54,655 nt of DNA, taken from the sequence record MH706966; one strand, given 5' to 3'. Below, piece after piece: positions 3,997 to 44,033 of the stretch (its first letter is position 1; each line of letters opens with the position of its first letter). The stretch comes from Enterobacteria phage mEp021. The notes under the pieces were generated by a model. The model was not told where the DNA came from and ran no database searches. It saw nothing but the letters and a program-made list of their open reading frames with translations. A program made the position numbers and the translations under genes.

Positions 3997-4586
3997 AATT
4001 CCAACCCCGTTTCCACGTTGAGTTTTTCAATCTCAAATACTGGTTTATCAGGAAGCAGCCCGTTATTTTTACGGTATTCGTTCAGGCGGCTGTCAAAGTC
4101 AAACGCCAAATCATTAGCGTGACCGAATCGCCCAGGTTTAAACAGTGAGTAAAAGTTAACCCCGTGCCTATTTGGATCAACGCAAAGCGTTTCATCAATC
4201 ACCATTAGGCGAAGAGTACGAGAAAGATAATTCCACGGGATACCAGTCTCCGCACTAATGTCACGCATACGCTTTTTAACGCTGTAGTCACCAAATAACG
4301 ACGCAACACGCTCACGACGTTCAGCATATAACTGTTTAATACGATAGCCCAGCAGACGGCGGCGGCGTCCAAAACATGTATATACGCGCTCGACGATACC
4401 GTTTTTTATTAAGTGTTTAATTGTCTCAGGAAGTAACCCATCTTTATCATATCCAGCTAATAACCCCGTTTTATTGCGCAACTGGTGCATTGTTGCGATG
4501 CCATCAAGTTCAAGGATATTGATAACTTTTGTTTCAAGTTCAGCGCTCATTGTTTTTAGCCTCGTTTTAAACGCGATAACAGCCAC
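3993..4586 (-). CDS. Hypothetical protein (197 aa) downstream of the helicase
   Basis: Long ORF; no Walker motif seen, so not called as a helicase loader. Confidence 0.5.
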   Translation of the reverse strand: MAVIAFKTRLKTMSAELETKVINILELDGIATMHQLRNKTGLLAGYDKDGLLPETIKHLIKNGIVERVYTCFGRRRRLLGYRIKQLYAERRERVASLFGDYSVKKRMRDISAETGIPWNYLSRTLRLMVIDETLCVDPNRHGVNFYSLFKPGRFGHANDLAFDFDSRLNEYRKNNGLLPDKPVFEIEKLNVETGLEL

Positions 4587-4629
4587 CAGAAAGCGGTAAA
4601 CTTTCCGGTAAGCCGTTTGCTCATATTGA

Positions 4630-6045
4630 TTAAAAAGATGCGTTATTCTGGTTGTTTCGTTGGTTAAATCTGCCTGTGCGGTGATTCATAGACTGAATAC
4701 ACGCAGCAGCCGCGCGTGCCTGGTCGCATGGTAAAATGTTGCCGTTATCATCAAACCGCTGGTAAACAGTGCCAGATTTACCATGACGGTTTTTCGATAC
4801 AATGATTTCCATATATTCGCGGGCTACAGACTGCTCATCGTAATATCCATCGCGGTAAACCATGATGATCCTGTCAGCATCTTGTTCAAGGTTCCCGGAA
4901 TCGCGCAGATCTGAATTGTTAGGACGCTTGTTCGGTCGCTCCTCAACGCGGCGTGACAACTGCGCCAGCGCTAACACTGGAACGCGCAATTCTTTTGCCA
5001 TCATCTTCAACGACCATGACAATTGCCCAACAGCGAGATCATGACGTTCAGCCTTAGCCAGCTTCATCAACCCGATGTAGTCAATCATTACCATACCCAG
5101 GTTAGGATGTTCCTGTTTCATCCGTTCCGTGGTGGCGCGTATTTCCTCAACCGTTAACTGCGACGCGTCAACGATCCACACATCAAGATTAGCAAGTGCG
5201 CTCATACCCTTGCCGACATGCGCCCACCCCTCATCATCAAGTTTTACCGGATTACGCAGGCAGTCTGTTGATAAATTACCAGCGCCAGCTATAGCGCGTT
5301 CAGTCATCTGATCGAGTGACATTTCAAGCGTGAAGAACAAAACGCCAACCCGCTGATCTTTACTGCCAGGGTAAGGGCGCTCAGCGGCAGCGCGGGCAAT
5401 TGTCAGCGCCAACGCAGATTTACCAGACCCAGGGCGTCCAGCTAAAAGCACCAAATCAGTAGCGTTAATGCCTCCCAACATCTCATCGAGTGGATCTATC
5501 CCTGTTTTGATGTTGTCAGAATTAACACCGCATTCCATGCGCTTGCTTAAAACGTCCGTATATTCCTGTACCGCATCACGCAACAGAACAGGAATGATCT
5601 TATCTTTCGTTACCTTTAATTTTGAATACCGGGAATCAAAATCTTTCATCGTCTCTTTGACGACCTCAAGCGTCCCCGTCTCCAGTTTGTAGCGCATATC
5701 GTCGATGAGTTCCAACATCTGCCGCCGCTGGTGCTCTTCACGTAGTAGCTGTGCGTATCCCTTCAGGTTGGCAGCAGACGGGCACGATCTCGCCGTTTGC
5801 ATTAGCGGTACAAAGTTTTCGTTGCCAATCTCATCGCCAACCAATAACGCGTCAATAAGATTCCTGTTTCTGGCTTGCGCCCTGATAATTTCAAACGCAC
5901 GTTTATACAGCGGAATCGTGAACACTTCAGGATCAAGAGTGGCGAGAACATCTTGCGCGTTAGGAGTAAGGCCGCCCAACAGCAGCCCACCGATAACTGA
6001 CGCCTCACGTTCCTGCCGTAGTGAGTTTATTTGCTCAGTTACCAT
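4630..6045 (-). CDS. dnaB: Replicative DNA helicase, DnaB family
   Basis: 471 aa; Walker A GRPGSGKSALALTIA; DnaB-like N-terminal domain and overall pattern. Confidence 0.85.
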   Translation of the reverse strand: MVTEQINSLRQEREASVIGGLLLGGLTPNAQDVLATLDPEVFTIPLYKRAFEIIRAQARNRNLIDALLVGDEIGNENFVPLMQTARSCPSAANLKGYAQLLREEHQRRQMLELIDDMRYKLETGTLEVVKETMKDFDSRYSKLKVTKDKIIPVLLRDAVQEYTDVLSKRMECGVNSDNIKTGIDPLDEMLGGINATDLVLLAGRPGSGKSALALTIARAAAERPYPGSKDQRVGVLFFTLEMSLDQMTERAIAGAGNLSTDCLRNPVKLDDEGWAHVGKGMSALANLDVWIVDASQLTVEEIRATTERMKQEHPNLGMVMIDYIGLMKLAKAERHDLAVGQLSWSLKMMAKELRVPVLALAQLSRRVEERPNKRPNNSDLRDSGNLEQDADRIIMVYRDGYYDEQSVAREYMEIIVSKNRHGKSGTVYQRFDDNGNILPCDQARAAAACIQSMNHRTGRFNQRNNQNNASF

Positions 6046-6079
6046 TATGTTATTACCTCCGGTTTACAAAATGGAAAAT

Positions 6080-6586
6080 TCAGGGTAAAGAAATACCGTG
6101 ATTGCTATGAAAGTTATACATTCTTTCAGCTTCTTTTCTTGCTTTTACGGCATCATCAAATGAGTCACCGTAATAAACGTACATTGTTTTCTTTTTCCCA
6201 TCAGACCCCCTTATACCTATTTGCGCCCGCCATTTATGGGTTTTCTTGTTCCACGTAACGCCAACGCATCCGCTAGTATTACTTGATGGCATTGTTTTGT
6301 TTCTGTTATTCTCCTTCCTTGTCACTATCCTTAAGTTTTCGATTCTATCGTCACCAGGTACATGATTTATGTGATCTATTTCCATTCCATCAGGAATAGG
6401 GCCGTTAAACATTTCCCAGATAATGCGGTGACGCCATGTGCAACAAATACCATTAACGCGTATAGTCCAATATCCGCGATAATGTTTACATCCAGCCACG
6501 CTACCTGCTTTTATTTTGTTATTTGCACGGTTACAAGACCAATATAGAACGCCGTCGCTATATGTAAATAAATCATCCCACATCAT
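6080..6586 (-). CDS. HNH homing endonuclease with AP2-like domain
   Basis: EIDHINHVPGDDRIENLRIVTRKENNRNK HNH motif; start taken at the internal ATGATG (6586) that overlaps the stop of the upstream gene; paralog of 45958-46524. Confidence 0.65.
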   Translation of the reverse strand: MMWDDLFTYSDGVLYWSCNRANNKIKAGSVAGCKHYRGYWTIRVNGICCTWRHRIIWEMFNGPIPDGMEIDHINHVPGDDRIENLRIVTRKENNRNKTMPSSNTSGCVGVTWNKKTHKWRAQIGIRGSDGKKKTMYVYYGDSFDDAVKARKEAERMYNFHSNHGISLP

Positions 6587-7703
6587 GACACCCAACCATT
6601 TCAGGCCTATATACAAAGCGACCAATTTCGCCATAATCAGGGCTGTAAATGATAACCGCCGCGCAACGTTGCGATCTCCAGCCTCCATTAGTTGAATAAG
6701 CGTCTTTTCCCGCTAACGTGCCGTGGTGTTCAACTATGCCTATAGATGATTCTGTTACTGATTTATGGTGCAAATGTCCGACATGGACGTAAACATATTT
6801 CGACTTGCCAAAATCCTCACGCCAGTCAGCTACGCAAGCAGACAATAAATTTTCAGGCTTTTTGATAGTGTGCCCGTGGTGGTAAGCAAGGAATGTTTTT
6901 CCGTACTGTGTGTGGTGGACGATGGCAGGGGACACATCAACCGTCACGCGCGGTTCATCTTCGTAAAAAGCCGCCAGCGCCGCACGTAGCCAGATCATTC
7001 CTGACTGGTCGTGATTGCCGGATAACACCTGGATTTCAACATCCTTATGATTTAATAACATCTTCCCTACCGCCCGCCGGACAGACCGGATCGCTACATA
7101 AACAAGTTTTGCGTAGCGACTATCTTGATCAAGAATGTGCCCGCTTGTTGGTGTCACCGGGACCATACCGTCAGAATGAAGTAGATCGCCACCGAGGAGC
7201 AGTACTGCTTTTTCAGACATAGGAGCAGCGCCAACCGCGTAGTCAAAGAAGTCATTCAACACGCGCTCAGCGATCCCAGTATCGTAGCTCTCACCGCATT
7301 CAGCTTTATGAGCAAGTGCCCCGATATGCAGGTCAAACACCGGATAAAGAGCCAGGCTTTTTTGAAAATCAATTTCCGGCACTGGCACTGCCTCCGCGCG
7401 TGGTATTTCTTCCGTGAATGCGTCGCGGGCGGCTTCCATTAGCCTTTCCATTTCATCGCGATCACGGGCTGTTTTAATCCAGCGCATGACCGTATTACCA
7501 GCCTTATCGACAAGAACAGATTCACCAGTAACGCCAAAACCCGGTGCGCGGCGCGTTGATAATAAACCGCGTTTCGCCAGCTTTGCGCCAAGCCGCTCGA
7601 CGTTGCGTTTTGACATGCCATATTTTTCGGCGATCTGTTTATACGTTAAACCGTTGTTATATTCAGCGATCAATTGCTCATCGCTTATCTTTCTTTGCGA
7701 CAT
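6573..7703 (-). CDS. HTH domain fused to calcineurin-like metallophosphoesterase (Mre11/SbcD or lambda-PPase-like)
   Basis: 376 aa; N-terminal LTYKQIAEKYGMSKRNVERL HTH; phosphoesterase motifs LLGGDLLHSDG, LSGNHDQ, HHGH, HVGHLHH. Confidence 0.6.
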   Translation of the reverse strand: MSQRKISDEQLIAEYNNGLTYKQIAEKYGMSKRNVERLGAKLAKRGLLSTRRAPGFGVTGESVLVDKAGNTVMRWIKTARDRDEMERLMEAARDAFTEEIPRAEAVPVPEIDFQKSLALYPVFDLHIGALAHKAECGESYDTGIAERVLNDFFDYAVGAAPMSEKAVLLLGGDLLHSDGMVPVTPTSGHILDQDSRYAKLVYVAIRSVRRAVGKMLLNHKDVEIQVLSGNHDQSGMIWLRAALAAFYEDEPRVTVDVSPAIVHHTQYGKTFLAYHHGHTIKKPENLLSACVADWREDFGKSKYVYVHVGHLHHKSVTESSIGIVEHHGTLAGKDAYSTNGGWRSQRCAAVIIYSPDYGEIGRFVYRPEMVGCHDVG

Positions 7704-7736
7704 AATGTTACTTCCTCATGTTTACGTTTTGTATAT

Positions 7737-9224
7737 TCATTGGCAGAAAACAATCTCTTTAAATGCTTTTTCTACCATGTCGAATACTTCCGGCCTGTAA
7801 TAGAAAAACTCATTGCTTCCATCAAATTTCACAGGAAAATTGATTTTATAATTACTAAAAGCCTTATGCATCGTGTTTTCTAGTTTATGTATACTTTCGG
7901 TTGGCCCTTCTAACGTTTTCACGACACACAAATCAGGGATTCTAACACCTGCTTTATGTGCGCTTTTTAATATCCGATTTCTTCGCTCGTTCTCCTTAAC
8001 ACTTACGCCGATTTTCATTTGTGTAGGTAATTCCAGATCATCAACCATGATGTAAAGTTTGCCATAATCATAACGAAAGAAACCGTATTTAGCGCATTTT
8101 TGGCAACCCCTACCGCGCTTAAGTTCTCTAGGTCTAACCGACCACTTATGATTACAAACCTTACAGCGGCATGATACTTTTTTATTTACGTTCGTTATTT
8201 CTCCCAGCACTTCAACATCAGGATTAACCTTAGCAATAGCTAAAACATGTTCTTCGTGCGTTATAATCTTCCCAGCACATTTTGGGCAACCCTTCCCGCG
8301 TTTAAGGTTGCTAGGAGTAACCGACCACTTATGATTACAAACCTTACAGCGGCATGATACTTTTTTATCTACGTTCGTTATTTCTCCCAGCACTTCAACA
8401 TCAGGATTAACCTTAGCAATAGCTAAAACATGTTCTTCGTGCGTTATAATCTTCCCAGCACATTTTGGGCAACCCTTACCGCGCTTAAGGTGGTTAGGTC
8501 TAACTGACCATTCATGATCACAAACCTTGCAGCGGCATAATACTTTTTTGTCGCCACCTGTAATTTCACCCAGCACTTCAACATCAGGATTAACCTTCGC
8601 AATGGCAGCAATTTGTTTATAATGTGATAGTCTTAGTTTTTGTGCAATTTTCACACATTTACATTTCGGGCAACCGCTCCCGTGTTTAAGGGCGTCAGGC
8701 GTAGCCGACCATACACGATCACAAATCTTGCAGCGGCATAATACTTTTGTTCTGCTATTAACAATTTTCCCCAGCACTTCAACATCAGGATTAATTCTTG
8801 AGATGGCGGCGATCTGTTCTTCGTGTGATAATCTTTTTGGCCCTTGCTTTAACATTGCGCATTTCGGGCAACCATTCCCGCGTTTAAGGTTGCTAGGAGT
8901 AACCGACCACTCATGATCACAAACCTTGCAGCGGCATAATACTTTTGTGCTGTTATTTATTATTTCCCCCAACACTTCAACATCAGGATTAATTTTAGCA
9001 ATAGCCGCAATTTGTTCTTCGTGGGATAGCCTTGCGTTCCCAGCGCATTTTGGGCAACCTTTACCGTGTTTAAGGTTGCTAGGAGTAACCGACCATTCAT
9101 GATCACAAACCTTGCAGCGGCATAATACTTTTTCCCGGCTTCCAGTAATTTCTCCCATCACTTCAACATCAGGATTAACTTTCGCAATAGCTGCAACCTG
9201 TTCTTCGTGTGTTAGCTTGCACAT
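7737..9224 (-). CDS. Protein with six tandem Zn-ribbon modules and a C-terminal GIY-YIG-like (T5orf172-type) domain
   Basis: 495 aa; six ~55-aa repeats HEEQVAAIAKVNPDVEVLGEI...C.C..C.H.W...P..L..G.GCPKC; C-terminal GKLYIMVDD...KIGVS...RRNRIL pattern; repeats 5 and 6 are near-identical at DNA level. Confidence 0.55.
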   Translation of the reverse strand: MCKLTHEEQVAAIAKVNPDVEVMGEITGSREKVLCRCKVCDHEWSVTPSNLKHGKGCPKCAGNARLSHEEQIAAIAKINPDVEVLGEIINNSTKVLCRCKVCDHEWSVTPSNLKRGNGCPKCAMLKQGPKRLSHEEQIAAISRINPDVEVLGKIVNSRTKVLCRCKICDRVWSATPDALKHGSGCPKCKCVKIAQKLRLSHYKQIAAIAKVNPDVEVLGEITGGDKKVLCRCKVCDHEWSVRPNHLKRGKGCPKCAGKIITHEEHVLAIAKVNPDVEVLGEITNVDKKVSCRCKVCNHKWSVTPSNLKRGKGCPKCAGKIITHEEHVLAIAKVNPDVEVLGEITNVNKKVSCRCKVCNHKWSVRPRELKRGRGCQKCAKYGFFRYDYGKLYIMVDDLELPTQMKIGVSVKENERRNRILKSAHKAGVRIPDLCVVKTLEGPTESIHKLENTMHKAFSNYKINFPVKFDGSNEFFYYRPEVFDMVEKAFKEIVFCQ

Positions 9225-9365
9225 CGTTTCAACTCCTTAAAACGCCTCAGACACTCTACAACGCAAAAACACACCGCGTAATCCACTTGTAATGGTGCAG
9301 TGTCTTTTTTGCGCCAGAATCGCAATCAGGTGGCTAATTTTTTGATTTACAGACTGGTATGAAGG

Positions 9366-9467
9366 TTATGGATTTACTAGAAGGAACAAGCCGCCGAACA
9401 AAGCGACGTTAACAGCGATTGCAGCGGCGATGGCAAAAGCCAGGGCGAAAACGTGTTTACCGTCCAT
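9366..9467 (-). CDS. Small hydrophobic peptide (33 aa, single predicted TM helix)
   Basis: MDGKHVFALAFAIAAAIAVNVALFGGLFLLVNP; SD agagagga upstream; below the ORF-track cut-off. Confidence 0.35.
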   Translation of the reverse strand: MDGKHVFALAFAIAAAIAVNVALFGGLFLLVNP

Positions 9468-9600: not shown

Positions 9601-10608
9601 TCAAATAGCGCCTGCGCGTGTATCGCGTAGCGTTTTTGGTTTAAGCAGGAAATCAAGTGTCGCAGTGAAGCCATTGCCGAAGTAAAAGTCTGAAGCCGTG
9701 TTTTTAAACGCCTCAAAGTAAGCAATAAAGCCAGTGATGCTTTTGTCTTTCAGGTAGTCAGTGAACGCATAGATCTTGCGTTCAAGATCCCGATCCAGTT
9801 CAGCAGGTGGCAACAGGCCATCAAACGTGCTGTTAAATGCTTCCACTACGTCGGCAGCGTTTGCAGTGACTGACAGTTTGCTCCATTGTTCAGCATCAGC
9901 CAGATACCCATCGAATTTAGTTACCCGGCAAATGTTAACAGGCTTAGGCACTCCACCACGGCCACGCCATTGCGTTAAAGCCCACTCAATCACTAATGTG
10001 ATCTCACCCTCCGTATACGCTTTGCGTGTTTTTGTTTCTGTCAGTAGTTCTACGAATGGCTTTGCATCACGACATTTGCATCCTGCCTTGTCGTTGTAGA
10101 AGGACAGGCAACGCAATGCCGCCAGATTAACCTCCCGATCTTCTTCGCTGATAGACTCGTCTTTTTCCAATACACGAAGTGTATTGTTTTTAATGTTCTC
10201 TTTACTGGTTATATATGACTGATTAGGGTTGCTCTCTGCCACTACCCCCGGTTGCTTTGTGCCACTACCCTGGTTGCTCTCTGCCACTACCCCCGGTTGC
10301 TTTGTGCCACTACCTGACAGTGAAGGTAAAACGATTACATAGAAATTGCTCGTTTGTTCTTTCCCTCCTATTAAATATCGAGGCTGTTTTAGTAATAAAC
10401 CTTTTTTGCAAAGAGCCTCGATTGCTCTCATTGCCGTACTTTTGTTTATTTCGCATTGCTTTGCTATGTGCTGGTAAGAAGGGTAGCACTCTCCGTTATC
10501 GTTAGCGTTATCAGCCAACTTTAACAGCACAAGTTTGTGCATTGGGTTGCCGACTTCAGTATGAAAGACTTCAACCATTAGCCGCATACTCATAAGCATT
10601 AACCTCAT
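9601..10608 (-). CDS. Replication initiator, phage O-like
   Basis: N-terminal winged-HTH pattern KLVLLKLADNANDNGECYPSYQHIAKQCEINKSTAMRAIEALCKKGLL; iterons embedded in the coding sequence; true start probably the internal ATG at 10593 with a gaggt SD. Confidence 0.7.
   Translation of the reverse strand: MRLMLMSMRLMVEVFHTEVGNPMHKLVLLKLADNANDNGECYPSYQHIAKQCEINKSTAMRAIEALCKKGLLLKQPRYLIGGKEQTSNFYVIVLPSLSGSGTKQPGVVAESNQGSGTKQPGVVAESNPNQSYITSKENIKNNTLRVLEKDESISEEDREVNLAALRCLSFYNDKAGCKCRDAKPFVELLTETKTRKAYTEGEITLVIEWALTQWRGRGGVPKPVNICRVTKFDGYLADAEQWSKLSVTANAADVVEAFNSTFDGLLPPAELDRDLERKIYAFTDYLKDKSITGFIAYFEAFKNTASDFYFGNGFTATLDFLLKPKTLRDTRAGAI
10227..10314. repeat. Four tandem ~22-bp iterons (ggttgctYtSTgccactaccc), candidate replication origin
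   Basis: Direct repeats at 10227-10249, 10250-10271, 10272-10294, 10295-10314, inside the O-like gene (encoding SGTKQPGVVAESN twice). Confidence 0.6.
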
Positions 10609-40071: not shown

Positions 40072-40126
40072 TTTATTGATTTAATCTTACGCCCGCAAGA
40101 TAATGACGTATCCTTGCGGGCTTTGC

Positions 40127-41461
40127 TTACGCGGCTTTTATAATTTCTTTATACTTATCTTCCACCATGTTAAAAACCTCTGGTCTGTAGTAGAAAAATT
40201 CGCAACTACCATCAAATTTTACTGGGAAGTTAATTTTGTAATTATTAAGGGTTTTGTGTATCGCGCCTTCTAGTTCATAGATATTTTGTGTCGGACCTTC
40301 TAATGTTTTTACGATATGCAAATCAGGAATCGTTACACCCGCTTTATGTGCGCTACTTAGTATTCTATTTCTTCGTTCGTTTTCCTTAACACTTACCCCT
40401 ACTTTCATTAGCGTTGGTACTTCCAGATCGTCAACCATGATATAAAGTTTGCCGCGTTCGTAGGATAAAAAACCCTTTTTAGCACATTTAGAACAGCCGC
40501 TACCTTCCTTAAGTTTTTGCGGCGTGGTTCGCCACTTATAACCACACACTTTACATAAACACGATACTTTGTTTTTATTCCCTGTTATTTTACCTACCAC
40601 TTTGATATTAGGGTTGATGTTGGCAATGGCTTTTACTTGCTCATCATGTGATATTCTTCGTGCTTGCGATCCTTTTCGTTTCGCACACTTCGGGCAACCA
40701 GTACCTTTTTTAAGGCTGGCTGGAGTAGTTAACCACTCATGACTGCAAGACTTACAGCGGCATAACGTTCTCGTAGTATTGTTAATAATTTTTTCTAATA
40801 CCTCAACGCTAGGACTGGTTTTCGCAATAACTGCAATTTGTTCTTCATGTGATAGTTTGGTGTGTCCGCTACATTTCGGGCAGCCAGTACCATGCTTGAT
40901 GTTGTTGGGAGTTGCTGGCCATTCATGATTGCAAATCTTACATTTGCATAATACTTTTTTTAAACTCGCAGATTAAAAGGGGTTTTATTCAATATTGCTG
41001 TTAACCTTCGCAATAGCTGCAACTTGTTCTTCATGCGTTAATCTTCTATCTGCGCATTTTGGGCAACCTTGCCCGATTTTAAGTGTTTCAGGTCTAGCCA
41101 ACCATTCATGATCACAAACTTTGCAATGGCATAATACCTTTGTTTTATTATTAATAATTACCCCTAACACCTTAATATCAGGATTAACTTTAGCAATAAT
41201 TGCAACCTGTTCTTCGTGTGGTAATGCCCGTTTTTGTGCTCTTTTTAACGCCGCACATTTAGGGCAACCAACACCGCGCTTAAGATCAGCAGGTCTACCA
41301 AACCATTCGTGATTACAAGTTTTGCAGCAGCATGATACTTTTTCCATATTCCCGGTAATTACCCCTATCACCTCGATATTGGGGTTAACTTTTGCAATAG
41401 CGGCAACTTGTTCTTCGTGTGTTAATTTTTTTGTCATAATACCGCTCCTACAATCTTCCAT
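40127..41461 (-). pseudogene. Disrupted paralog of the Zn-ribbon/GIY-YIG-like gene at 7737-9224
   Basis: A single reading frame of about 445 codons carries about five Zn-ribbon modules and an intact C-terminal GIY-YIG-like domain but is interrupted by two in-frame TAA stops (+ strand 40985-40987 and 40973-40975). Confidence 0.55.
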
Positions 41462-41547
41462 TCCGTCCTACATAACTCCTGCCGAACATTACCAACCAGA
41501 TGCTCCAGATCTCCCGCCATGTGTATTTCTCATTCTTCATACCCGCC

Positions 41548-41802
41548 TCACTTATGAGCGCCTTTTACGCCACATAACTTGTTATAAAAATGGTGCTCAA
41601 CGATTAACCAAACCCTCAGATCTTCACTGAACAGCCGCCAATCAGGATTAATGTCAAACTTCCAGCCATAACCATCGCGTAACTTTTTGGGGTTGGCCTC
41701 TTTCTTCAGGAAAGCATTTAATAAGGCTTTTCCCTTTTTGATGATCCGGTCCTGTGCGTTTTTCTGTGCTTTCAGGTTTTTACCAATCGCCACCAATTTC
41801 AT
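41548..41802 (-). CDS. Small protein (84 aa), possibly RelE/YafQ-like toxin fold
   Basis: Lysine-rich N-terminal helices then GYGWKFDINPDWRLFSEDLRVWLIVEHHFYNKL, loosely resembling the YafQ PDW-L-Y pattern from memory; SD gcggggtgg. Confidence 0.3.
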   Translation of the reverse strand: MKLVAIGKNLKAQKNAQDRIIKKGKALLNAFLKKEANPKKLRDGYGWKFDINPDWRLFSEDLRVWLIVEHHFYNKLCGVKGAHK

Positions 41803-41820
41803 AATCCACCCCGCAATCAA

Positions 41821-41976
41821 TTAGTTGACCACTTTCAGGAAGAAATCACAGTATTCATCTTCTTTTGCATTCATCATGAACTGACCGTATTTGAATGCGT
41901 CATCAAAGCCTTTTACAATCGCCACTTCCACCTGTTCGAATGCGTTGTTCAGCATTACCACTACATAGCGTTTCAT
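41821..41976 (-). CDS. Small protein (51 aa), upstream partner of the 84-aa gene
   Basis: MKRYVVVMLNNAFEQVEVAIVKGFDDAFKYGQFMMNAKEDEYCDFFLKVVN; strong SD aaaggagggg 4 nt upstream of the ATG. Confidence 0.4.
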   Translation of the reverse strand: MKRYVVVMLNNAFEQVEVAIVKGFDDAFKYGQFMMNAKEDEYCDFFLKVVN

Positions 41977-42146
41977 GATGCCCCTCCTTTGTTGGTACTG
42001 CTTTCTCTTCTTGCCTCCTATATACATCTTGTTACGTCATGTGTGAAGCCATTTTGTAAACTGGGTATAATTCTTGTGACGAAGTTCTCATTTTTCGCGT
42101 AGAAGCGCGTAAAGATGTATGCAATATGTAACTTATAGGGGGAATC

Positions 42147-42500
42147 ATGCCTGAAGTTTTCAGATGGACGCCGCAAAGAAGCTACAGCGTGACCAGGGAA
42201 CCAAATGTGTCGGTCGTTAAACTTGGTGATGGTTATGAACAGCGCCAGGCTAAAGGGATTAACACGTTGCTTGATAGCTACACCCTGGTTTTTAAAGGCA
42301 GTAGCGCAGGATGCGGTGATAGTGGGAACGTGGCGATCCAGGCAGAAGCATTCTTGAGGGCGCGCGGCGCTGTCGAGGCTTTTTACTGGTCGCCGTCTAT
42401 GGATGGTGTGCAAAGGCTTTTTGTTTGCCGTAGCTGGAGTATGACAAAGGACGGGCCTGTATACACGCTAAACGCAACATTTGAGCAAGTTGTCAGTTAG
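42147..42500 (+). CDS. M: Minor tail protein M
   Basis: 117 aa; size and position as lambda gpM, immediately before gpL-like; SD taggggga. Confidence 0.65.
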   Translation: MPEVFRWTPQRSYSVTREPNVSVVKLGDGYEQRQAKGINTLLDSYTLVFKGSSAGCGDSGNVAIQAEAFLRARGAVEAFYWSPSMDGVQRLFVCRSWSMTKDGPVYTLNATFEQVVS

Positions 42501-42697
42501 TGGGGGTTAATATGTACGGGACTTGTGTAGTGGACAAAACTGACGCTTTTACATTGTTTGACGACTACGAGATCAACGACCTTACTGTAAAGGCTGACAA
42601 TGGCGATACATGGTATCTTCATGATGTTGGTGATGGTTATGTGGGATGCAGATCCAGAGAAGGCAAGGAGGTTTTATTTTTGGTTGATGGCGTATAA
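42500..42697 (+). CDS. Hypothetical protein (65 aa)
   Basis: ORF overlapping the gpM stop. Confidence 0.35.
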   Translation: MGVNMYGTCVVDKTDAFTLFDDYEINDLTVKADNGDTWYLHDVGDGYVGCRSREGKEVLFLVDGV

Positions 42698-42876
42698 TAA
42701 CAACCCCGCTTCGCGCGGGGTTTTCTTGTCAGTAGTTAATGTACATCAAACTCATTGGGTGAGCGTGCGCCATATTATTGGCTATCGCCGCCCAGTCCCA
42801 ATCGGCAGCATGAACGCCAAATACTATCAGTCCCATTATTATTAGCGCCAAAACTTCTATTTTCATAATCTGTCAC

Positions 42877-43191
42877 CTATAAGTTATCACGCAGGTAATT
42901 AACGCCCTTATCAGTGACGAATGAATGGTTTACCTGGTTTTCATCCGTCATGATGATGAATAACTTTTCCTGTAGGTATTTCGCTTTCGGGTACAGTGTT
43001 AAACAGACCTGGTACAGTATCCCGCGCTCAATCAGCAAATCAATAAATTCGTGCTCATGATAACCGATAAGGCGGGCGGCCTGTTTCAACGTGTACACAT
43101 AGTCACCGTGATTACGCCGTGCCATGATTTTATTCTCACATATCAAAAAATAGCATGTCAGGTATAAAAGTATCGCCGCAAGAATTTCCAT
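42877..43191 (-). CDS. Hypothetical protein, possible HTH DNA-binding protein (start ambiguous)
   Basis: YTLKQAARLIGYHEHEFIDLLIERGIL HTH-like segment; alternative start at 43125. Confidence 0.4.
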   Translation of the reverse strand: MEILAAILLYLTCYFLICENKIMARRNHGDYVYTLKQAARLIGYHEHEFIDLLIERGILYQVCLTLYPKAKYLQEKLFIIMTDENQVNHSFVTDKGVNYLRDNL

Positions 43192-43369
43192 ATCCTTTTA
43201 CCGTACTACCATCAATATCAATCACTGTGAGCGGCACAAAATTTAAACAGTCATCGACAGTGAAACGGCTGCCAGAAGGTGTAATGAATAATGGGTATCT
43301 ATTTTTTATATTAAAATCATCATTTTTGTTAGATGTAACAACGAGTTTGATAACACCTATCATCTTCAT
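43136..43369 (-). CDS. Hypothetical protein (77 aa)
   Basis: ORF in the opposite-strand island. Confidence 0.35.
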   Translation of the reverse strand: MKMIGVIKLVVTSNKNDDFNIKNRYPLFITPSGSRFTVDDCLNFVPLTVIDIDGSTVKGYGNSCGDTFIPDMLFFDM

Positions 43370-43384
43370 ATATCGGCCTACACT

Positions 43385-43738
43385 TTATTTGCCATTAAAA
43401 CAGCCCAGGTTATCTATGCAGAAGTCTTTTGCCGCTTTTTCGTATTCGCGTTTTGCTTCCGGATCGTCAGCTGGAAAACCTTTTGCGTGTATTTCTCCAG
43501 GGCAAGATTGATCCATAGAATCAGCAAATTCAACATTGACGTTAAAGTTAATATCTTTCGGGTTCATCTCTTCCACCTTATCCGGTACTTGGACCGGAGT
43601 AATATCAAAATCACGATAGTTAAACCCACAGCGAAGTAATTCACGACCTTCATCACGCGCCGCAGCATATGTGTCAAATAGGCCCATGCGTTCCCATCCG
43701 CATTTATTAGTAAACACGTCTAAACTGTATTTTTGCAT
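43385..43738 (-). CDS. Hypothetical protein (117 aa)
   Basis: ORF in the opposite-strand island. Confidence 0.45.
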   Translation of the reverse strand: MQKYSLDVFTNKCGWERMGLFDTYAAARDEGRELLRCGFNYRDFDITPVQVPDKVEEMNPKDINFNVNVEFADSMDQSCPGEIHAKGFPADDPEAKREYEKAAKDFCIDNLGCFNGK

Positions 43739-43750
43739 TTTGTTAACCTC

Positions 43751-43981
43751 TCATTTGACGGGTTCGATCTCGTACCCCAAAACGCGTTCGTCTTCAGCAA
43801 GTAAAAGCGCGTCAACCAGCGCATCGCCTTCATCTTTATACAGGGCCACAAGCATTTCCCTGCCATCAGCCAGGAACACCGTCAACCTCCACACCTTATC
43901 ATCCATCGCACACCTCCGCGCCATTTTGTTAACCCTGCTTCCTTTTGAGTACAATATACATATTGTAAAAAGCGCTATCAA
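43751..43981 (-). CDS. Hypothetical protein (57-76 aa)
   Basis: First gene of the opposite-strand island; acidic. Confidence 0.35.
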   Translation of the reverse strand: MIALFTICILYSKGSRVNKMARRCAMDDKVWRLTVFLADGREMLVALYKDEGDALVDALLLAEDERVLGYEIEPVK

Positions 43982-44033
43982 CCGTTTTGGTATGATTTAG
44001 CGTGACGTAGATCACAAATTGCAAGGTGATAAA

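Follow-up and report, generated by a model that had tools for sequence, protein, structure and literature searches.

The complete genome of Enterobacteria phage mEp021 (GenBank acc. no. MH706966), whose 54,655 bp form the window analysed here, contains at 7737-9224 on the minus strand an intact open reading frame (ORF) of 495 amino acids with an ATG start, which is probably a gene for a free-standing homing-endonuclease-type nuclease belonging to T5orf172, a family within the GIY-YIG superfamily. Its product was deposited as a "putative zinc-ribbon domain-containing protein" (AXN54131.1), and the gene gets no discussion in the paper on the mEpimmI phages, the group to which mEp021 belongs and which was termed non-lambdoid by its describers. 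An original prediction, made from the letters alone, had seen here a homing-type nuclease or, equally possible, a many-finger nucleic-acid-binding effector inserted in the replication module, and the former interpretation was supported by our analysis, for which domain identities, conserved catalytic and metal-binding residues, the fold, the cassette boundaries, polymorphisms, and a nearby breakpoint were computed. Since relatives harbor the gene, lack it, or carry a shorter form at the same spot, it appears to be a mobile nuclease gene of an ordinary kind rather than a novel replication factor.

The gene and its parts, all on the minus strand, are as follows:
7737-9224, whole nuclease gene (495 aa + stop; AXN54131.1)
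9233-9238, Shine-Dalgarno sequence AAGGAG, 8 nt 5' of the ATG and within the cassette (comparison with the empty-site boundary)
9045-9224, zinc-ribbon repeat 1, aa 1-60 (domain match, repeat model)
8859-9044, zinc-ribbon repeat 2, aa 61-122 (domain match, repeat model)
8661-8858, zinc-ribbon repeat 3, aa 123-188, the most divergent unit (repeat model)
8460-8660, zinc-ribbon repeat 4, aa 189-255 (repeat model)
8277-8459, zinc-ribbon repeat 5, aa 256-316 (DNA 94% identical to repeat 6)
8094-8276, zinc-ribbon repeat 6, aa 317-377 (repeat comparison)
7740-8093, T5orf172/MUG113 domain of the GIY-YIG superfamily, aa 378-495 (Pfam, invariant residues, structure model)

Domain architecture of the mEp021 protein

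The GIY-YIG/T5orf172-like signature named in the original prediction is present in the C-terminal part (GKLYIMVDD, residues 388-396; KIGVS, 404-408; RRNRIL, 414-419). The profile search that it had proposed placed the full protein above the Pfam gathering scores of T5orf172 (22.3 bits; gathering score 20) and MUG113 (23.2 bits; 22.3), with the catalytic residues conserved, while the C-terminal fragment alone reached 24.6 and 25.9 bits, respectively. In addition, a match to PHROG 681 "endonuclease" was obtained (E-value 1.8e-90). A single-sequence search against 1.8 billion representatives revealed 22 relatives of this domain, marking a narrow subfamily. In an alignment of 27 sequences with identities down to 25%, all members matched T5orf172 on their own (best E-value 1.4e-10) and 25 of the 27 matched MUG113, and Y391, D395, P400, K404, G406, R414, E449, H453, F467, G469, E472, and F474 were invariant. 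Y391 (GKLYIM, strand 1), K404-I-G406, R414, and the candidate catalytic residues E449 and E472 were also invariant in 82 close homologs. Judged from these alignments, the GIY-YIG motif's Tyr, x-I-G, Arg, and Glu all belong to the invariant set.

AlphaFold modelled repeat 6 together with the C-terminal domain at a mean predicted local distance difference test score (pLDDT) of 93.6, with the elements in the order beta1, beta2, alpha1, beta3, alpha2, and the predicted domain displays the GIY-YIG alpha/beta fold. The model was closest to the GIY-YIG nucleases SLX1, HIGLE, and I-TevI. Foldseek against the PDB gave no significant match, and in a viral structure library 190 proteins matched at E<=1e-3, many of them named T5 Orf172, CapR-homology, or treble-clef zinc-finger. 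At the nucleotide level, the nuclease domain was 68-71% identical to genes of virulent phages with genomes of ~130-145 kb, deposited as Escherichia and Shigella phages and also as Campylobacter phages; a few of these genes are labelled putative GIY-YIG or homing endonuclease. These matches indicate that the domain has spread across unrelated phage types.

Residues 1-377 consist of six tandem units of 60-67 aa each, detected by a repeat hidden Markov model (HMM) as six domains (each with an E-value of 1e-30 to 1e-35) and by Tandem Repeats Finder (period 183, 5.9 copies, score 859). Thus, the six modules described before were recovered, although at a larger size than the ~55 aa assumed. Pfam DUF4379 ("probable treble clef zinc finger"; 124.7 bits, E-value 1.6e-36) and the Pfam CapR homology domain (96.6 bits, E-value 9.7e-28) each matched six stretches, one per repeat. 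Based on an alignment of 294 distinct units from homologs, the metal ligands are all cysteines (CxxC, 16 residues, CxxC) and are invariant, and not the mixture of Cys and His proposed earlier; the His and Trp that had been noted are conserved scaffold residues, and Trp, Pro, Lys, and Gly residues as well as an N-terminal helix are nearly invariant alongside the four Cys. The predicted fold of a repeat matched the DUF4379 protein mt-SAF33 weakly (E>0.5, probability 0.6-0.7, root-mean-square deviation 1.3-3.2 Å over 33-39 residues). A sequence search of the PDB revealed nothing but a weak DUF4379 match, and a search of NCBIfam nothing but spurious sub-threshold matches to HypA-type zinc fingers. 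The full-length AlphaFold model (pLDDT 85.7 overall and about 90 within the repeats, predicted template modelling score 0.35, weak linkers) looks as expected from a flexible array of beads on a string.

About ten positions per unit showed an entropy of 2.4-3.4 bits in the 294 units, two of them in the loop that precedes the first strand, and eight more between the Cys pairs. Repeats 5 and 6 are indeed near-identical, as had been stated, with 94% identity in DNA and 90% in protein compared to 67-84% in DNA for the other pairs; their 11 nucleotide differences all lie in codon 31 or in codons 48-61, and five of their six amino-acid differences fall on hypervariable positions. A crude per-column ratio of nonsynonymous to synonymous polymorphism (pN/pS), calculated from the 28 units with DNA, was 0.6-1.8 in variable columns, 0-0.3 in scaffold columns, and roughly 0.7 between repeats 5 and 6, values that are compatible with diversifying selection or with relaxed constraint alike and do not distinguish between them.

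The same order, with four-Cys fingers arrayed at the N terminus and the T5orf172 domain at the C terminus, is found in putative homing endonucleases that include ICP1 gp174 and gp165, among others, and the product of a six-repeat gene of Vibrio phage Helene (Barth et al. 2023, PMC10448857). In that survey of ICP1, ICP1-like, and other phage genomes, 87% of the putative homing genes with T5orf172 carry CapR, DUF723, or DUF4379-type fingers, often repeated; the T5orf172 genes of Helene have up to six repeat regions, the DNA repeats of the fingers recombine, and T5orf172 genes lie at boundaries of genetic exchange. Repeats numbering up to six and degenerate recombining DNA repeats are common to these genes and to that of mEp021, which may likewise lie at an exchange boundary. 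The survey does not mention temperate phages or prophages. In contrast, the mEp021 gene belongs to a temperate E. coli phage (mEpimmI group), also occurs in many E. coli prophages, and lies within the replication module; its locus displays an allelic series of 0, 1, 2, 3, and 6 repeats, and its nuclease subfamily is narrow.

Three further known systems were compared with the protein. The repressor CapR from the PLE satellite of V. cholerae is a zinc-finger protein that descends from T5orf172 nucleases of phages and needs its four Cys to bind DNA (Netter et al. 2021, PMC8096241). It has a homologous zinc-finger module, the Pfam model of which matched each of the six mEp021 repeats. Unlike the mEp021 protein, this repressor has a single finger and no nuclease domain, and its published pattern is CxxC...CxC as opposed to CxxC...CxxC here; by analogy, zinc binding and sequence-specific DNA binding may be expected of the repeats. 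Odn (ICP1 gp88), an origin-directed T5orf172 nuclease, cuts DNA in vitro and is inactive as an E180A mutant (Barth et al. 2021, PMC8263062). It shares the catalytic domain with conserved Arg and Glu, and a metal-dependent endonuclease activity, cleavage being proven for Odn, may be expected of its mEp021 relative as well. In Odn, a RepA_N iteron-binding domain takes the place of the zinc ribbons, and the protein serves as an anti-satellite weapon, not as a homing gene. In the GIY-YIG homing endonucleases I-TevI and the Seg proteins of T4, the catalytic domain is N-terminal, whereas it is C-terminal here; they have Y-I-G in place of K-I-G, and NUMOD or helix-turn-helix modules in place of a homotypic array of six large zinc ribbons.

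Apart from that, long DUF4379 proteins of 700-850 aa (for example, P0039, P0047, and P0087) harbor 6-10 copies of the same repeat and a central nuclease-like domain, which is not T5orf172 and differs from the catalytic domain of mEp021; by eye, its conserved ELDIYIP...AIE.G.W.WHK stretch appears restriction-endonuclease-like. With the same repeat arrayed around a different catalytic domain, these proteins indicate that the array is a portable targeting module.

Slot polymorphism and recombination

The gene occupies a slot between a gene for a 376-aa metallophosphoesterase-like protein and tiny ORFs downstream of the O-like initiator gene. Comparison with the other mEpimmI phages and MagusPhagus revealed the following contents and limits of this slot:
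mEp010 (PP180001.1; slot within about 6700-7300) and MagusPhagus, empty
mEp013, 178-aa version of the nuclease gene with one repeat; nuclease domain 89% identical
mEp515, 4638-5381 (L003), Bro-N + KilAC gene
mEp554, 4117-4860 (L005), Bro-N + KilAC gene
mEp044, 4117-5471 (L004), Rha + KilAC gene, and Bro-N gene
mEp021, about 7742-9255, cassette compared with the empty site of mEp010 and MagusPhagus; ~1.5 kb in place of ~14 bp
mEp021, 7389-7741, left flank with ~88% identity to mEp515; breakpoint ~350 bp from the gene

The presence/absence polymorphism that the original prediction had suggested looking for was therefore found, the gene being far from universal at this position. The insert reaches from the stop codon to ~31 bp 5' of the start and includes the ribosome-binding site. 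As is characteristic of homing genes, the gene is present or absent at one locus in otherwise syntenic genomes and forms a precise gene-sized insertion. According to the literature, Bro-N, KilAC (ANT), and Rha domains are often combined with T5orf172, and the slot seems to collect one functional class, accessory DNA-binding genes.

A similar picture was obtained for prophages. A prophage with the neighboring gene was detected in 31 of 5,426 complete E. coli genomes, and the slot of these 31 was filled by the zinc-ribbon gene in ten and by a Rha-family gene in three. Three of the zinc-ribbon genes were inspected, of which two came from the group of ten and one from a further prophage, and all were three-repeat forms; the array of the E. 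coli M1/5 prophage has three repeats. Two six-repeat alleles (P0001 and P0002) from E. coli prophages occupy precisely this slot, too. Counting repeats in the top 120 homologs together with the mEp021 and mEp013 genes, we identified T5orf172-bearing proteins with one (n=1), two (3), three (35), four (32), five (6), and six (5) repeats.

Possible traces of recombination were seen both beside the gene and among its repeats. Over 2,257 bp (5132-7388), mEp021 shows zero mismatches to mEp515, followed by an abrupt fall to about 88% from 7389 up to the slot, an alignment pattern that indicates a recent recombinational exchange ending beside the nuclease slot. Six-repeat alleles at the same locus revealed no repeat-by-repeat correspondence (52-76% identity, no diagonal). 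Closest are two alleles that fall into one 90% cluster with the mEp021 gene, P0142 with two repeats and P0143 with one, and their units are mosaics of mEp021 repeats; that of P0143 appears to join the head of repeat 1, including a rare Met, to the tail of repeat 6. In sequence, such mosaic units fit unequal recombination between repeats, and short-read repeat collapse could be an alternative source of similar chimeras. The single repeat of mEp013 was also considered as a recombinant of repeats 1 and 6 of the mEp021 array and was rejected, being ~80% identical to all six repeats.

Proposed mechanism and alternative readings

For the mEp021 protein, we infer homing, a target site, and DNA cleavage along the following lines. 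The six four-cysteine CapR/DUF4379 ribbons would fold independently, with flexible linkers between them, and would together probably read an extended DNA target, with specificity coming from the ~10 hypervariable positions per module, mostly between the Cys pairs, while the C-terminal 118 residues would cut DNA near this target. Given its place in the early rightward operon and its own ribosome-binding site, the nuclease would be made during lytic growth. Upon co-infection with a cassette-less relative, it would cut the DNA of the relative close to the empty slot, and repair by recombination, with the genome that bears the cassette as template, would copy the gene and its flanks into the relative; recombination between repeats would alter their number and order. 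Barth et al. (2023, PMC10448857) caution that sequence alone cannot establish homing. A comparison of both flanks in 12 alleles, aimed at marks of a target or immunity site, revealed no fixed difference between cassette-bearing and empty ones, the flanks being simply mosaic.

The main rival, which we consider clearly less probable than homing though still plausible, is that the active nuclease is a weapon against competing phages, satellites, or foreign DNA, similar to ICP1 Odn, with its gene kept at a fixed accessory slot. Such a weapon would better account for diversifying arrays at a fixed locus and for a slot that also houses Bro, Rha, and KilAC genes. Neither the locus nor the nuclease domain changes, while the arrays vary in number (1, 2, 3, 6) and in sequence without positional orthology, with some ten hypervariable positions per repeat, and the slot may instead encode Bro-N/KilAC and Rha proteins, which are typically accessory or involved in conflict. 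With Odn, there is a known case of a T5orf172 nuclease directed at a satellite. However, the pN/pS of 0.6-1.8 at variable positions is explicable by relaxed constraint alone. A PADLOC scan gave no significant match to a defence model; its only match, to the defence candidate PDC-S57 (E-value 1.5e-4, 19.4 bits), would point to a weapon but is weak. A scan for promoters of the nuclease gene revealed promoter-like sites not in excess and none convincing. Since the gene lies in an early lytic operon with no predicted promoter of its own, a defence expressed in the lysogen is unlikely.

A bolder view, which we hold to be doubtful, takes the array as a natural, rapidly re-programmable DNA-recognition system that re-targets a fixed-locus nuclease against rival phages. 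Each ~61-aa module would read a short DNA word via its ~10 hypervariable positions, and unequal recombination would add, delete, and shuffle modules. If true, this would constitute a modular 'code' that in principle resembles TALE or C2H2 arrays, unlike a classical fixed-site homing enzyme.

A different question is whether the gene is real but its six-repeat count, especially the pair of repeats 5 and 6, partly an assembly artefact, which we regard as improbable. The mEp021 genome is a de novo assembly of AB SOLiD short reads according to the mEpimmI paper, so that the exact copy number of the 183-bp repeats is uncertain in the deposited genome; a colour-space-type error occurs in a paralog of the same record (see below), and the closest alleles in other assemblies have only one or two repeats. 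On the other hand, intact six-repeat alleles occupy the same slot in independent E. coli assemblies, repeats 5 and 6 differ at 11 positions clustered in their 3' third with the reading frame intact, and the short alleles could equally be collapsed Illumina assemblies.

Even less probable, in our view, is a domesticated, non-cutting DNA-binding regulator whose fingers bind a promoter or the origin, with the T5orf172 domain merely structural or DNA-binding. CapR is such a domesticated relative, T5orf172 was first predicted as a DNA-binding domain (PMC8096241), and the gene adjoins the replication origin region with the iterons at 10227-10314 described below. But CapR lacks a nuclease domain, whereas here the domain is intact with every candidate catalytic residue invariant down to 25% identity, which makes a non-cutting regulator unlikely, and close relatives whose O, DnaB, and regulatory genes are the same manage without the gene. 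Hardly credible, finally, is a replication accessory protein (a helicase loader or primase-like zinc-finger factor) in place of lambda P, for which the position inside the replication module and the occurrence of zinc ribbons in primases may be cited, but which we rejected since mEp010 and MagusPhagus keep the same O-like and DnaB genes with an empty slot, family searches of the protein gave no loader or primase match, and the repeat number varies freely.

Taken alone, the gene is a selfish or accessory nuclease gene of an ordinary kind, and GenBank already lists its product as a zinc-ribbon protein. It extends nucleases with T5orf172 and zinc-finger arrays to prevalent temperate gut coliphages and E. 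coli prophages, and the mEpimmI phages, which can be cultured and crossed, provide a series of alleles (empty slot or 1, 2, 3, and 6 repeats) and two paralogs per genome, suited to direct testing of homing and of the DNA-recognition rules of the repeats.

Second paralog and neighboring genes

Using the repeat and nuclease HMMs, we identified a second paralog in the same genome:
40127-41437, minus strand, five DUF4379 zinc-ribbon repeats and the same T5orf172 domain

It is located in a low-GC block, antisense to tail genes. In the mEp021 record it contains two in-frame stops at 40970-40987 and was annotated as two ORFs (AXN54185.1 and AXN54184.1). In mEp013 and many E. coli prophages, the paralog is uninterrupted and 436 aa long; mEp010, mEp044, mEp554, and MagusPhagus lack it, and it was not detected in mEp515, whose match spans the right flank only. 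Both stops are created by the 16-nt TAAAACCCCTTTTAAT, which equals the ATTTTGGGGAAAATTA expected from homologs after complementing each base (A<->T, C<->G) without reversal; restoring ATTTTGGGGAAAATTA yields ...NSNIEILGKITAS..., an exact protein match to homolog P0008. In two-base colour encoding, two colour miscalls give exactly such an A<->T, C<->G block. Given this complement block and the SOLiD sequencing, the split of the paralog is probably a colour-space artefact, and how many near-identical repeats the main gene has exactly should be viewed with similar caution. Two probable quality issues are to be flagged in the mEp021 reference sequence.

Regarding the gene order, the succession of O-like initiator, nuclease gene, and helicase given in the original prediction was correct, but four further genes or ORFs lie between O and DnaB, so that the stretch holds the zinc-ribbon gene, two tiny ORFs, the 376-aa metallophosphoesterase-like gene, and an HNH gene. 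The 376-aa neighbor (6573-7703, minus strand) matched PHROG 704 'DNA repair exonuclease' (E-value 2.4e-144), has an N-terminal helix-turn-helix, and has one homolog labelled metallophosphoesterase in RefSeq; it is kept in all relatives, between the two nuclease slots. The other slot, between this gene and DnaB, contains a gene for an HNH_3 + AP2-domain endonuclease (6080-6688, minus strand; PHROG 99, E-value 3e-60). It is present in mEp021, mEp010, and mEp515 and absent from mEp013, mEp044, mEp554, MagusPhagus, and the E. coli prophages examined, and is a second homing-type cassette flanking the 376-aa neighbor gene.

Inside the O-like initiator gene, four direct repeats of ~20 bp (GGTTGCTCTCTGCCACTACC / GGTTGCTTTGTGCCACTACC) with a spacing of ~22-23 bp were found at 10227-10314, where they encode the duplicated peptide GSGTKQPGVVAESN and are probably origin iterons. 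The surrounding segment 10200-10800 is of another sequence type in mEp515, MagusPhagus, and E. coli prophages. One may speculate that the six fingers read these four iterons as a tandem DNA target. Just upstream of the cassette, a strongly hydrophobic ORF of 33 aa (MDGKHVFALAFAIAAAIAVNVALFGGLFLLVNP) at 9367-9465 on the minus strand is conserved in relatives, where it is annotated as a 102-nt gene, and may encode a small membrane peptide.

The block at about 40100-44000 that holds the second paralog has a GC content of 0.39-0.45 and many small minus-strand ORFs among plus-strand tail genes, and looks like an island of accessory genes; within it, the segment at about 41485-41692 resembles an E. 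coli gene annotated as ParE family toxin-like protein.
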